A stretch of 64,000 nt of DNA. It comes from Escherichia phage RCS47. The stretch is taken from sequence record NC_042128.1. One strand, given 5' to 3'. A program made the position numbers and the translations under genes. How positions within the stretch are numbered: position 1 is the first letter of the stretch; every line of letters starts with the position of its first letter. The notes under the pieces were generated by a model that worked only from the letters and a program-made list of their open reading frames with translations, had not been told where the DNA came from and made no database searches. Below, piece after piece: positions 51,337 through 56,105 of the stretch.

Positions 51337-51876
51337 CTACCACCAACTGCTAGCTTTCTTCTCTCTAGCTTTTCCTTCGCTTTGCAGTAAATCTTTACTT
51401 CCTGTAGAAATATTTCTATTTGCATCAGCCTCAGACTGAATTACATCTGTCTTAGCTGCTCTCTCCTTCAACTCCTGCTCTATAAAATCGTTTTCTCGCT
51501 GGACACGAGCCGCTTTTGCTTGCAGTTCGAGTTTCATGCTTTCGAGTTGCAGCTTGCGAAGCTCATCCTCATAAGCTTGATCTCGCTTCTTGTCATTTGC
51601 TAGCTCGGCTTCTCGTTTTGCTCTACGTTCATTTTCTGCAGCAACACGCTGTTTTTCGCGTGCAGCAGCGGCAGATGCTGCTTTTTCTCTTCTAATACGT
51701 TCAGCTTGTGCTTGTTGGCGAATAAGTTCTTTTCTGGCATCCTCAGCTTGCTGCTCTTTAGCTCGCCCTTCATTTTCCGCTTGAGCAATAGCAGCAATTT
51801 GACTTTGCAACGAGTTAGCCAAGGCAGTGCCTACACTAAACGTAGAAAAGATTAGAAATAAAATAATTTTATTCAT
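51337..51876 (-). CDS. secreted coiled-coil protein
   Basis: 179 aa; signal peptide MNKIILFLIFSTFSVGTALA; Ala/Glu/Arg/Lys-rich; AT-rich codons. Confidence 0.5.
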   Translation of the reverse strand: MNKIILFLIFSTFSVGTALANSLQSQIAAIAQAENEGRAKEQQAEDARKELIRQQAQAERIRREKAASAAAAREKQRVAAENERRAKREAELANDKKRDQAYEDELRKLQLESMKLELQAKAARVQRENDFIEQELKERAAKTDVIQSEADANRNISTGSKDLLQSEGKAREKKASSWW

Positions 51877-51879
51877 AAA

Positions 51880-52392
51880 TTATTTCTTTTCTGGACAAGT
51901 AGCATTTGGCTGAATTCGAGTTTCATTATCTTTAGTTGAAATAAGCACAGCAAGCCCCGTTGTAAACTGGCATGCTTTACCAACTTGAGTTGAAGTGAAC
52001 ACCTTAGTTCCTTCTTTATAAGTCAGTGAAACACCTTCAACAATTGTTTTATCACTAACCAAAGAACCAGCCGCTGCACCAAGAGCCGCACCACCAGTAC
52101 CGCCAGCTACAGCACCCAGTGTCGATGTGCCTTTAACATTATAACCGGCAACGCCCCCAGCAACAGCTCCCAGTACCGCACCAAATGTCTGTGCCGCTTC
52201 TTTATTAGCTTTATTATCAACTTTCACTTTAGCTGGAAGCACAGAGATAATATTGACTGTCTTTGTTTCCTGCTTCGAATTCAATTGAGCGGTATCATAA
52301 ACATCGGCAGCATAATCAGCACCGCTAGATTGACACCCAGAAAGAAGAATTGCAGATACAACAAGAGCGCATAAAGTATACTTTTTAGACAT
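51880..52392 (-). CDS. glycine-zipper lipoprotein
   Basis: lipobox LLSGC after signal peptide; GAVLGAVAGGVAGY...GAVAGGTGGAALGAAAG glycine zipper. Confidence 0.55.
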   Translation of the reverse strand: MSKKYTLCALVVSAILLSGCQSSGADYAADVYDTAQLNSKQETKTVNIISVLPAKVKVDNKANKEAAQTFGAVLGAVAGGVAGYNVKGTSTLGAVAGGTGGAALGAAAGSLVSDKTIVEGVSLTYKEGTKVFTSTQVGKACQFTTGLAVLISTKDNETRIQPNATCPEKK

Positions 52393-52683
52393 AAGAATCA
52401 TCCAAGAAAAACAAAAACCGGCGAGAAGTTACCACGAGAACGGAAAGTAAACAAGAATACTCCCATTGACTTATATCAATTAATCAACTTTTTATAAGCA
52501 ACCCCTAACTTATTGTGTATAGCTGAAAAGTCAGAGACAAGTTCACCATCTGCATTATTTCTTAAGTTAATAGTTTATTGCTAACTTAATTTATGTATCG
52601 ACTATTGATATCCATCTTAAAGTAACAATATCCCTCTGCATTATTTTTCATCACAAATAATACTTCTATTGCACGACACTCAT

Positions 52684-52699
52684 CTGCTCTAATAAATTT
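52684..52699. promoter_or_regulatory. C1 operator-like site upstream of immI
   Basis: CTGCTCTAATAAATTT. Confidence 0.55.
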
Positions 52700-53013
52700 G
52701 TATTTTTAAGTCGTGAATGCTATCTTTTCGCATCATATTGACCTTTTAATCGTTCAGGCTTATAGTTTCGCCGTCGTAGCAAATTCTGCGACCGGGTTTA
52801 GCAGCCTGAATGATTGTGCGGACAGCCGCAGATATCCGATATTGCGGTATTTTTGTGTCCGTAAAACCGCGTTACGCCCAAATTATGGTGGGGCGTGATG
52901 GGGAGGCTTCGGCCTGCTGGTTTCACAATCGCCAGTCTGCTAACCCCGTCACGTCCTGCCACCTGTTTAGCAGCGGGTAGCAGGTTGTTAAACCTGATTG
53001 TGAGGCCGTAACT

Positions 53014-53235
53014 ATGGTTAATGCCAATCCTTGCGCACGCCAAGAATTCATCTGGCGTTTCTATTCCTGTAAAAAACACCACTATCACTTCGTTATCGCA
53101 GCAACAGAAGACGAAGCACGCTCTCAATTGCCTGATGGCCCCTGCATTTTTACTGCCCGTTTTTCAACTAACTCGCGCAATTCACTTAGTTACTGGAGCC
53201 TCCCCTTCTCTGCCGACGTTCAGGGGGGTTTATGA
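53014..53235 (+). CDS. icd: Icd-like cell division inhibitor
   Basis: 73 aa, ATG after TGAGG, overlaps ant start by 4 nt as in P1. Confidence 0.55.
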   Translation: MVNANPCARQEFIWRFYSCKKHHYHFVIAATEDEARSQLPDGPCIFTARFSTNSRNSLSYWSLPFSADVQGGL

Positions 53236-54266
53236 AAACACCTCTCGTCACCCGTAATGAAATAGCCGAAGCGATCGCCTTGCATACAATCTGTATGCCG
53301 ACACGGGAGATCCCCGGCGCAATTGCCAACTATTTCATGATAACCAGGCGTTTTTATACCCGAACAGATAAGGCTGTGATCAACAGGCTACTGATAGCCG
53401 AGATCAGGGATTATTTGATTGAACAAGGACGTCTACGTTACGCAACAGTGGCAGCAGAAATGAGAAAGGAGGCACATAGAATGACCGGTAATAATTTAAA
53501 TGTTGAAAAACCAGCACCTGTTGCTTCAGCTACGCCAGCACCAGCCCTGAATGTCATCCCCAACACCGGAGACACAATCGACAGCCAAACATTGTTGAAG
53601 ATGGTCAATGAGGCACGGAAATTATGTAGCGAAAAACCAGTTCGCAACAATGATTTCATTGCCAGAGTTAAGGATGAGCTTGAAGGAGAAACCTACGAAA
53701 TTTTCGTAGGTCAAAAAAACGGCGCAGAAATAGATATTATAACCATGACCTACAAACAAGCCCTGCGAGTTGCCGCGCGCGAGTCAAAAGCGGTCCGCCG
53801 TTCGCTGATCGACAAACTGGAAGAATTACAGCAGGCAAACTCCCCTACCCCATCGATCCCCCAGACATTACCAGAAGCCCTACGCCTGGCTGCCGAGTTA
53901 GCAGAACAGAAAATGCAGTTGGAACAACAGCTGGTGGCCGCAGCCCCTAAAGTCGATTTTGCCGACCGGGTATCAGTGGCCAATGGAATCCTGATCGGGA
54001 ACTTTGCAAAGGTCGTTGGACTTAAGCAAAACGCCCTTTTCTCATGGTTGCGCCAGAATGGCATTCTCATGGCTTTTGGAGCGCGCAAAAACGTACCGCG
54101 CCAACAGTACATCAACGCCGGGTATTTCACGTTGAAAGAAGTGGTGCTGGATGATGAAAATGGCTACCAGATACGGCTGACGCCCCAATTAACGGGTAAA
54201 GGCCAGCAGTGGTTAACTCGCAAGCTACTTGATGCTGGTTTGTTAAAACCAGTAGCAATAGGTTAA
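53232..54266 (+). CDS. ant: Ant antirepressor
   Basis: 344 aa; C-terminal antirepressor domain shared with KilA (...GNFAKVVGLKQNALFSWLRQNGIL...). Confidence 0.75.
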   Translation: MKTPLVTRNEIAEAIALHTICMPTREIPGAIANYFMITRRFYTRTDKAVINRLLIAEIRDYLIEQGRLRYATVAAEMRKEAHRMTGNNLNVEKPAPVASATPAPALNVIPNTGDTIDSQTLLKMVNEARKLCSEKPVRNNDFIARVKDELEGETYEIFVGQKNGAEIDIITMTYKQALRVAARESKAVRRSLIDKLEELQQANSPTPSIPQTLPEALRLAAELAEQKMQLEQQLVAAAPKVDFADRVSVANGILIGNFAKVVGLKQNALFSWLRQNGILMAFGARKNVPRQQYINAGYFTLKEVVLDDENGYQIRLTPQLTGKGQQWLTRKLLDAGLLKPVAIG

Positions 54267-54276
54267 CAAAAGAAAA

Positions 54277-54303
54277 AACCTGCCAGCAAACTGGCAGGTT
54301 TCT
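54277..54303 (+). terminator. rho-independent terminator after ant
   Basis: AACCTGCCAG-CAAA-CTGGCAGGTT followed by TCT. Confidence 0.6.
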
Positions 54304-54343
54304 GAGCAGATCGACCAACCCGATCTGGATCGAGTCAGAAAAA

Positions 54344-54360
54344 TTTGCTCTAATAAATTT
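54344..54360. promoter_or_regulatory. C1 operator-like site upstream of kilA-repL
   Basis: TTTGCTCTAATAAATTT. Confidence 0.6.
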
Positions 54361-54429
54361 CGTTTTCTAAGTGCAAAGAATCACCATTTCGAGCTGGTGA
54401 TTGAAGGTTGATGCAAATTTGGAGAAAAA

Positions 54430-55230
54430 ATGCAACAAACATTCAATGCGGATATGAATATATCAAACCTTCATCAAAATGTCGATCCTTCAACCACTCT
54501 GCCCGTTATTTGTGGTGTTGAAATTACGACCGACCGCGCTGGCCGTTACAACCTTAATGCTCTACACAGAGCGAGCGGACTCGGTGCCCATAAAGCGCCA
54601 GCTCAATGGCTAAGAACGCTGTCAGCTAAACAGCTCATCGAAGAGCTTGAAAAAGAAACTATGCAGAATTGCATAGTTTCGTTCGAAGGCCGTGGCGGCG
54701 GCACTTTTGCCCATGAATTGCTCGCAGTGGAGTACGCTGGTTGGATTTCTCCCGCGTTTCGGCTGAAGGTAAACCAGACATTTATCGACTATCGAGCCGG
54801 AAGATTACAACCTGCTATTCCGCAGAGTCTCCCTGAAGCTCTCCGTTTGGCTGCCGACCTGGCAGAGCAAAAGCAACGGCTGGAACAAAAAATGCTTATG
54901 GATGCACCTAAAGTCGAATTCGCCGAACGCGTTGCTACCGCCAGCGGGGTTCTAATCGGCAACTATGCCAAAGTGCTCGGTCTGGGCCAAAACTATCTCT
55001 TCACCTGGTTGCGTGATAACGGAATTCTGATCGCAACCGGTGAACGCAGGAACGTCCCCAAACAAGAATACATATCCCGTGGGTATTTCACCCTTAAAGA
55101 AACCGTGATCGATACAAGCAATGGAAGCAGGATTTCTTTCACGACTCGTATAACCGGCAAAGGTCAGCAGTGGCTGATGAAGCGATTGCTTGATACTGGT
55201 GTGCTGGTACCTGTCGCGGCAACGCGCTAA
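54430..55230 (+). CDS. kilA: KilA
   Basis: 266 aa; N-terminal KilA-N-like region plus C-terminal domain paralogous to Ant. Confidence 0.7.
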   Translation: MQQTFNADMNISNLHQNVDPSTTLPVICGVEITTDRAGRYNLNALHRASGLGAHKAPAQWLRTLSAKQLIEELEKETMQNCIVSFEGRGGGTFAHELLAVEYAGWISPAFRLKVNQTFIDYRAGRLQPAIPQSLPEALRLAADLAEQKQRLEQKMLMDAPKVEFAERVATASGVLIGNYAKVLGLGQNYLFTWLRDNGILIATGERRNVPKQEYISRGYFTLKETVIDTSNGSRISFTTRITGKGQQWLMKRLLDTGVLVPVAATR

Positions 55231-55259
55231 CAGACGTAGTAAGAACCACCAGCATTGTA

Positions 55260-56105
55260 ATGCTGGCTAAAGTCACTTTCCTGAGCTGTATAACGATGAG
55301 CGATTTTACTTTTTCTGGCTATGAATTGGCCTGCTTTGTAACACACTCCGGTCTATCCCGTAGCGCCGGGCATATCCTGTCGCAATGTGCAAATCTCGCG
55401 GCAACAACCAGTGAATACTTCATTCACAAGCCTCACCGCCTGATCGCGGCAGAAACTGGTTATAGCCAATCAACCGTCGTTCGTGCATTCCGTGAAGCTG
55501 TAAACAAAGGAATCCTGTCTGTAGAGATTGTTATCGGCGATCACCGTGAACGTCGCGCTAACCTGTACCGGTTTACACCATCCTTTTTGGCCTTCGCACA
55601 ACAAGCCAAAAATGCGCTGATTGAAAGCAAATTAAAGATCTCTTCAGCGGCAACCAAGGTTAAAGCTGTTCTCGCTAAGACATTGGCTTTATTTAATTTT
55701 TTATCCACATCCCCATGTCAAAATGATACCCCCTCCCCCTGTCAGGATGACGTGGCAATAAAGAATAAGAAGTCACAAGTTAAAAAAACAAAAAGATCAG
55801 TTTCCGACGGTGCCGGAACGTCCAGACTCAAAAAATTGACTTCGTGGATCGCTGAGGCAAAAGCAAAAGCTGACAATCTGCGGTTATCCAAAAAACGCGC
55901 TCAAAAACATGAGTTCAAGCAGAAAGTAGAGGCGGCAGCGCGGAAATATGCTTACCTGAAGAACAAGCGTTCTCCTGATATTGGCGGGATATCAAACTTC
56001 GATAATCTGCCGCATTGCATGACGGTAAACGAAGCTCTTAATGCGGTTTTAGCCAAAAATAAAGATAACGAACAATGGGGTATACCGGCAGGATTCAGAG
56101 GGTGA
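55260..56105 (+). CDS. repL: RepL lytic replication initiator
   Basis: 281 aa directly after kilA. Confidence 0.65.
   Translation: MLAKVTFLSCITMSDFTFSGYELACFVTHSGLSRSAGHILSQCANLAATTSEYFIHKPHRLIAAETGYSQSTVVRAFREAVNKGILSVEIVIGDHRERRANLYRFTPSFLAFAQQAKNALIESKLKISSAATKVKAVLAKTLALFNFLSTSPCQNDTPSPCQDDVAIKNKKSQVKKTKRSVSDGAGTSRLKKLTSWIAEAKAKADNLRLSKKRAQKHEFKQKVEAAARKYAYLKNKRSPDIGGISNFDNLPHCMTVNEALNAVLAKNKDNEQWGIPAGFRG

Follow-up and report, generated by a model that had tools for sequence, protein, structure and literature searches.

The window considered here is a stretch of 64,000 nucleotides (nt) of DNA from Escherichia phage RCS47 (NC_042128.1), a P7-type P1-like phage-plasmid in which positions 51200-52900 match phage phi456 at 99.4% and phage P7 at 98.9% identity. 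Between pmgC (50690-51256) and the c4-icd-ant immunity operon it carries two tandem open reading frames (ORFs) on the minus strand, spaced by 3 nt. On the homologies described below we regard the identity of this pair as settled: it is a P7-type yfgH-yfgI-like cassette, in which the gene for a predicted outer-membrane lipoprotein is followed by the gene for a secreted, strongly charged protein of the DUF5384 family. The cassette and its two genes, with their guanine plus cytosine content (GC) and lengths in amino acids (aa), are as follows.

51309..52684, minus strand: replaceable cassette, a yfgHI-like module of the P7 type; P1 homology ends at 51308/51309 and starts again at 52684/52685; GC 40.4%.

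51880..52401, minus strand: yfgH-like gene (P7 upf50.5), encoding a predicted SlyB-family glycine-zipper outer-membrane lipoprotein of 173 aa; alternative start ATG at 52392.

51337..51876, minus strand: yfgI-like gene (P7 upf50.0), encoding a DUF5384 protein of 179 aa whose signal peptide is cleavable and whose mature part is helical and highly charged.

The flanks of the cassette belong to the P1 backbone, the left (49001-51308) being 98.4% and the right (52685-55500) 95.7% identical to P1, and between them 1376 base pairs (bp; 51309-52684) take the place of the 1513-bp stretch of P1 with simC, simB and simA. The original prediction, made from the letters of the window, had put the pair at the P1 sim locus beside immI, and this clean swap confirms it. 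It had also described the genes as AT-rich and foreign in composition, and here too the figures agree: the GC of the cassette compares with a window mean of 50.3% and is equalled or undercut in only 0.24% of stretches of the same length, while GC at third codon positions (GC3) is 24% and 31% in the two genes against 43-53% in sit, pmgB, tub, pmgC, ant1, kilA and repL. The P1 sim module is likewise AT-rich, at 33% GC.

The 173-aa lipoprotein is 100% identical to P7 Upf50.5 and shares 67% of its amino acids with YfgH (b2505) of Escherichia coli K-12 over an ungapped alignment of 171 aa (E value 6e-73). An N-terminal signal peptide leads into the lipobox LLSGC, where Cys23 is followed by Gln-Ser-Ser and the +2 residue is consequently Gln, not Asp, and overlapping small-xxx-small (GxxxG-type) repeats span residues 70-116, so that the lipobox and glycine-zipper core first read from the sequence both stand. 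The lipobox cysteine is invariant in an alignment of 42 YfgH-family sequences, as are Cys144 and Cys169, and the phage protein keeps all three. Its likeness to YfgH extends to length, lipobox, class of +2 residue, glycine-zipper hairpin and a C-terminal beta domain with two conserved cysteines. Homologues number 483, many of them named glycine zipper 2TM or SlyB. A profile of the 42 family members matches the SlyB structure (7OJF/7OJG) over its full length (residues 6-153/155, E 1.4e-9), and SlyB was found by this family profile only: neither cassette protein had a significant hit when the PDB was searched with its single sequence, and the Pfam glycine-zipper models alone remained below their cut-offs for the lipoprotein. 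The AlphaFold2 model of the lipoprotein is poor, with a predicted local distance difference test score (pLDDT) of 56, yet shows the SlyB order of elements, and its top and only significant Foldseek match is 7ojf_A (SlyB; E 1e-6, template-modelling score 0.50/0.59). Because the model is poor, claims at the level of the fold lean on the family-profile match to SlyB. Taken on its homologies, the protein belongs to the YfgH/SlyB family of glycine-zipper outer-membrane lipoproteins, its placement in the outer membrane being predicted.

The 179-aa protein is 100% identical to P7 Upf50.0 and 47% identical to K-12 YfgI, and the Pfam model DUF5384 (PF17358) covers its residues 39-179 with profile positions 4-145/145 at 147.8 bits, against a cut-off of 25 (E 3e-43). 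Its signal sequence ends in A-L-A, followed by N-S, and the chain is about 41% charged and 19% Ala, being rich in Glu, Arg, Lys and Gln, much as the original prediction of a signal-peptide protein rich in Ala, Glu, Arg and Lys had it. AlphaFold2 returns a single helix from residue 3 to residue 178 (mean pLDDT 88), and the mature protein of about 159 residues is predicted to form a helix of about 24 nm if fully extended. The N-terminal half has few hydrophobic residues and much charge, heptad-like hydrophobic residues occur at 92-133, and the last 85 residues are conserved in the DUF5384 family, ending in SWW or SWF. With YfgI and its family the protein shares the signal peptide, the charged helical body and these C-terminal 85 residues; it differs in that identity to YfgI is 47% only and that the N-terminal charged half varies freely.

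In K-12 the yfgH-yfgI pair sits between guaA and yfgG. The cassette DNA is about 69% identical to this chromosomal pair, with gene order equal and the yfgI homologue next downstream of the lipoprotein gene in chromosome and cassette alike, and of 5426 complete E. coli genomes, 5420 contain a match to the cassette DNA, in nearly every case the chromosomal copy. The two proteins had been said to match none that could be named; this does not hold, since both are known from P7 and are paralogues of the products of core yfgH-yfgI, and the homology search that the original prediction proposed returns clear homology to this housekeeping envelope operon. At 63 of 65 species-level loci encoding DUF5384, the DUF5384 gene is immediately preceded by a YfgH-family ORF in the same orientation, the two exceptions being contigs of less than 340 bp, and in all mobile-element copies examined the DUF5384 gene lies directly downstream of the YfgH-family lipoprotein gene. 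Homologues of yfgH and yfgI thus form a near-obligate two-gene module.

Within this module the phage copy is set apart from chromosomal yfgH by its carriage on a phage-plasmid, by a GC3 of 24% against 43% and by a hairpin tip of its own. Diverged alleles, with identities of 84%, 86% and 88%, are found either in the P1 sim slot or in a chromosomal island; mobile-element alleles share the tip GYNVKGTSTLGAVAGG, against GHNVGSGSNSGTTAGA in the chromosomal proteins, and have a GC3 of 21-35%, against 43-50% in chromosomal genes of E. coli. Given this low GC3, the cassette is not a recent copy from E. coli. Differences between alleles fall mostly in the signal peptides, the mature proteins being highly conserved. 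As judged from these comparisons, the phage copy is a diverged and distinct mobile-element lineage of the bacterial yfgH-yfgI operon.

The pair travels on other elements as well. A Vibrio MPF_F plasmid bears it, and a Salmonella contig has a pair of the same lineage beside phage-type genes. On pYLMB10c, a small mobilisable ColRNAI plasmid of 7.5 kilobases (kb), a yfgH-like gene (75% identity) adjoins a phosphoethanolamine transferase gene and IS1, and the downstream yfgI-like frame is broken and split in two. The idea that the pair is widespread phage cargo was largely rejected, true phage copies in IMG/VR being confined to P1-like contigs; IMG/VR matches at 66-69% identity are host yfgH at the edges of prophage predictions, by an integration site, as in TL-2011b (JQ011317). 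Many prophage records or predictions of about 40 kb end in chromosomal yfgG-yfgH-yfgI, and a common integration site therefore adjoins yfgI/guaA. Host genes at this site are filed as phage genes and feed PHROGs 1277 and 1094.

What such a pair might do for its carrier can be approached through its characterised relatives. SlyB is reportedly (Janssens et al. 2024, Nature 626:617) a lipoprotein, induced by PhoPQ, that surrounds lipid and outer-membrane proteins within nanodomains. The cassette lipoprotein has its fold order of strand, two-helix glycine-zipper hairpin and beta domain; identity between the two is about 25%, and SlyB differs further in having no DUF5384 partner gene beside it. Closer data come from YfgH itself, the deletion of which causes sensitivity to sodium dodecyl sulfate with ethylenediaminetetraacetic acid and higher permeability, and the over-expression of which rescues knock-downs of outer-membrane biogenesis genes (2025 preprint, bioRxiv 10.64898/2025.12.22.696046). 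In the same preprint, suppressors of the yfgH deletion map to cardiolipin synthase, those of slyB and yfgH deletions lie in different pathways, and AlphaFold3 predicts SlyB-like rings of YfgH, while its introduction associates loss of YfgH with more blebbing and outer-membrane shedding (bioRxiv 10.64898/2025.12.22.696046). Aggravating genetic interactions with lptD have also been found, and yfgH is linked to lptDE in an interaction map (PMC3219608). For yfgI the sole reported phenotype is sensitivity to nalidixic acid, and in S. Typhi the orthologous srgIL operon is regulated by SdiA (PMC11619404). Literature searches on DUF5384 and upf50 returned nothing relevant.

With a probability that we put at roughly 0.45, the cassette is a moron, a set of self-contained accessory genes, that fortifies or remodels the outer membrane of the lysogen through SlyB-like assemblies with a helical partner. 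We favour this reading on the close homology to a membrane stabiliser and the carriage by non-phage elements: spread over non-phage plasmids and a chromosomal island fits general envelope fitness better than exclusion specific to P1. From its Sec signal, lipobox and Gln at +2, the lipoprotein would be lipidated at Cys23 and sorted by Lol to the outer membrane, where, by analogy with YfgH and SlyB, its glycine-zipper hairpin would insert and the protein would assemble into ring-like belts around patches of lipid or outer-membrane protein. The DUF5384 protein would be secreted, as a charged and single long helix of up to the predicted 24 nm, and the near-obligate adjacency of the two genes suggests that their products work together. 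Transcription would take place in the lysogen from a promoter of the cassette's own in the AT-rich region upstream. The net effect would be tolerance to detergent or bile, to chelators and to defects in the assembly of lipopolysaccharide or outer-membrane proteins, a lysogenic conversion that benefits the carrier cell and perhaps hinders incoming phage secondarily.

Selection on the cassette bears on whether it has a function for the phage at all. Alleles in the P1 slot have ratios of non-synonymous to synonymous substitution (dN/dS) of 0.03-0.10 with dS above 1, which is to say that synonymous sites are saturated; these values point to strong purifying selection on the mobile-element alleles. 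More than 160 plasmids have both frames intact and unchanged, and all family-invariant residues are kept in both proteins. Eight low-GC variable regions are known in P1-like phage-plasmids, the sim region among them (PMC9603915), and a passenger with no selected phage function, AT-rich DNA that landed in a recombination-prone slot, would be at home in such a region. Given the selection data, we disfavour this explanation and consider it highly improbable.

The slot itself lies between two sites of the backbone.

51288..51305, minus strand: LPsit, late promoter of the backbone and left boundary of the slot, annotated in P7 and P1; the sole exact match to the late-promoter pattern in the window.

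52683..52699, plus strand: Oc4 (Op51), C1 repressor operator of the backbone and right boundary of the slot, annotated in P7 and P1.

LPsit drives pmgC-tub-pmgB-sit, not the cassette. Oc4 fits the operator consensus with 2 mismatches (6 such sites occur in the window against 0.22 expected) and controls the rightward c4-icd-ant operon. Between LPsit and Oc4 the slot holds at least three alternative cassettes, and the counts of their proteins in PLSDB, with PmgC for the backbone, are as follows.

About 505 records: PmgC at 95% identity or more, taken as the P1-type backbone.

168 records: the YfgH-like protein of this cassette at 95% identity or more.

20 records: YfgH-like alleles at 80-90% identity.

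140 records: SimC at 95% identity or more.

About 84 records: the full-length 215-aa protein of the third cassette.

About a third of the P1-type plasmids in PLSDB (168 of about 505) carry the yfgHI-like cassette. The third cassette, seen in phage vB_EcoM-Ro157c2YLVW, encodes two signal-peptide proteins of 158 aa and 215 aa. Residues 122-168 of the latter match residues 937-979 of the injection/tape-measure protein Sit (window positions 46152-46280) with 49% identity over a 47-residue segment (pairwise E 6e-9), and there is a second short match at Sit residues 1013-1026; the 215-aa secreted protein could be a periplasmic decoy of Sit. P1 SimA (52 aa), its signal and mature parts together, matches the first 41 residues of this protein at 93% identity, which suggests that P1 simA is the truncated remainder of a gene for a longer secreted protein. 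Extra genes enlarge the slot on the plasmids that carry the 84% and 88% alleles: in one the allele is followed by the gene for a 419-aa DUF559/REase_MTES_1575 protein, in the other by one for a YfjT-like protein and then one for a 389-aa protein with a weak SH3_3 match.

That the pair lies exactly in the sim slot, adjoining immI, raises the question of whether it is a superinfection-exclusion or other anti-phage module in place of Sim, its SlyB-like rings and long periplasmic helix blocking penetration of the outer membrane, or transit through the periplasm, by the DNA of incoming P1-like or other phages, or masking receptors. Signal sequences begin all seven proteins of the three cassettes examined (SimA, SimB and SimC; the 158-aa and 215-aa pair; the YfgHI-like pair), and the Sit-like segment of the third cassette points to selection, in this slot, for interfering with injection. 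The cassette also resembles P1 Sim in slot, orientation, low GC and exported products, and it differs in number and sizes of genes and is without detectable sequence similarity: BLASTP against SimC, SimB and SimA gave a best E of 0.18 over 30 residues. The charged YfgI-like protein was tried as a mimic of Sit and rejected (best E 0.86), and a resemblance of SimC to Sit was likewise rejected on comparison. No PADLOC defence model matched at E up to 1.

Phages are known to carry small lipoproteins as morons, such as Bor of lambda, which confers serum resistance, and the FhuA blockers Llp of T5 and Cor of phi80 and N15. All are, like the cassette lipoprotein, small outer-membrane lipoproteins that change the host surface and are encoded by temperate or early phage genes, and they differ from it in lacking homology. 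No similarity of the cassette proteins to Llp was found, and the PHROG match of the lipoprotein to Cor (E 0.022) covers residues 10-54 only, the signal-peptide and lipobox region. Literature searches found no paper tying YfgH/SlyB-type or glycine-zipper lipoproteins to phage exclusion. Of the original proposal that these envelope proteins are candidates for exclusion or receptor masking, the exported products in the sim slot stand; as no likeness to Sim, Llp or the PADLOC models was found, and to Cor only in the lipobox region, exclusion is argued from position and analogy.

A further precedent is TraT, the lipoprotein of F-like plasmids that provides surface exclusion and serum resistance (PDB 9FSM, 9E2V; F plasmid sequence for comparison, NC_002483). 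TraT is a hairpin-anchored outer-membrane lipoprotein that forms an oligomeric helical barrel, and it stems from a chromosomal gene family taken up by mobile elements (PMC11733297), so that co-option of a chromosomal outer-membrane lipoprotein would not be new. The two proteins share the two-helix anchor rich in Gly and Ala: hhalign aligns 72 columns, the hairpin and the strands that follow, with a probability of 86%. TraT differs in its length of 243 aa and in an LptE-like core and beta-hairpin, both absent from the cassette lipoprotein, which is 70 residues shorter. The TraT Pfam model (PF05818) scores 23.1 bits, below its cut-off of 31 (E 7e-5), and the solved TraT decamers, ranking second and fifth in Foldseek, are not significant (E 0.2-0.5). 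That the cassette lipoprotein is a TraT was rejected on the absent core and the Pfam score.

P1 and P7 are classically heteroimmune, each plating on lysogens of the other, and the Sim effect is seen mainly at multicopy. Their mutual plating argues against strong single-copy exclusion of P1 by the cassette. An exclusion role, argued from position, from a slot whose products are all exported and from the TraT analogy, would also suit a mobile-element lineage that is distinct from the chromosomal orthologues and strongly conserved; it is weakened in turn by the nearest characterised homologue being a housekeeping membrane stabiliser and by the occurrence of the same lineage on non-phage plasmids, and we hold it a live but doubtful rival. 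A bolder form of it seems to us rather unlikely, namely that mobile YfgH-YfgI is a new exclusion or defence module, interchangeable with Sim, in which a SlyB-like belt and a periplasm-spanning helical ruler of about 24 nm would stop the delivery of phage or conjugative DNA, recruited as TraT was from a housekeeping stabiliser.

The non-coding DNA around the genes concerns when they are expressed, and three of its features may be relevant.

52402..52682, minus strand: upstream non-coding region, cassette-specific, 32% GC.

52465..52480, minus strand: inverted repeat ATTGA-N6-TCAAT, about 70 nt 5' of the start codon, overlapping a TGnTATAAG extended -10-like element.

51257..51303, minus strand: strong hairpin between the cassette and pmgC, overlapping LPsit and ending just before the pmgC start codon; 18-nt arms, 89% complementary.

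The upstream region presumably holds the cassette's own promoter. The inverted repeat is kept in three diverged alleles of the P1 slot (P7-type, 84% and 88%), the surrounding DNA not being kept, and this makes it the best candidate for a control or regulator site of the cassette. The hairpin folds as RNA at -30.3 kcal/mol with its flanks (z-score -6.1). A transcript begun at LPsit would miss the left arm, and read-through from upstream would hold the whole hairpin, which may shield the late operon from transcription running on from the cassette. Rfam gave no family within the cassette, its only hits being C4 and its a1b1 targets outside it. A sub-threshold match to the Salmonella small RNA isrK (43.7 bits against a gathering score of 50) was seen at 52773-52854, overlapping the c4 a1b1 target region upstream of the C4 RNA (52881-52966).

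These features also bear on a role in the lytic cycle, in which the pair would hold the outer membrane until spanin-mediated lysis or spare progeny from loss on debris and vesicles, as T5 Llp does. Its place directly upstream of the late sit operon, in shared orientation, would suit this, as would the blebbing and shedding that follow loss of YfgH (bioRxiv 10.64898/2025.12.22.696046). Yet no Lpa-type late-promoter motif lies upstream of the cassette, the pattern matching only LPsit in the window, and the strong hairpin parts the cassette from the late operon; the sim genes of the same slot are dispensable for lytic growth (PMC10695390), and the pair is also found on elements that have no lytic cycle. 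We consider such a role improbable.

We return to the favoured reading, that the cassette fortifies the outer membrane of the lysogen, against which several points must be set. Lysogens already have chromosomal yfgHI, next to which a plain extra copy looks redundant, and the divergence of the mobile-element lineage, greatest in the YfgI-like protein (47% identity), together with the lipoprotein's own conserved hairpin tip, suggests that specificity may have changed. The other occupants of the slot include the Sim exclusion genes, and the third cassette encodes a secreted protein that copies a segment of Sit. Expression in the lysogen is assumed, with no confident promoter: a strict sigma-70 consensus scan of the minus strand upstream of the cassette found none, and reading by hand gave weak candidates only. 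The structural model of the lipoprotein is, as described, a poor one (pLDDT 56), and functional data on YfgH come from one preprint (bioRxiv 10.64898/2025.12.22.696046) and one genetic-interaction study (PMC3219608).

Both genes have been in GenBank since the P7 record, where their products are already noted as resembling E. coli K-12 proteins, the one as a lipoprotein of the outer membrane and the other as a membrane protein of unknown function. Later annotation has drifted. RefSeq phage records and PHROG 1277 give the lipoprotein as “DNA methyltransferase”, and the phi456 record calls the two genes “minor tail protein” and “tail tip protein” (records with these labels: NC_050152, NC_031129, NC_019445, PHROG 1277, OR339795). 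No search made here supports the methyltransferase or tail-protein labels, which are wrong and are being propagated. What is new here is the placing of the pair with the YfgH/SlyB family, the near-obligate pairing of H and I and the distinct mobile-element lineage.

P1-like phage-plasmids spread resistance genes, for example mcr-1 and blaCTX-M, and the effect of a cassette carried by such elements on the envelope of their hosts is of wider interest. If the cassette fortifies the outer membrane, it would be a lysogenic-conversion trait that affects tolerance to bile, to detergent and possibly to antibiotics. If instead it excludes phages, it would give a second function to YfgH/SlyB-type lipoproteins and to the orphan DUF5384 family, and the P1 sim slot would be a natural test-bed of interchangeable modules that act on the envelope.

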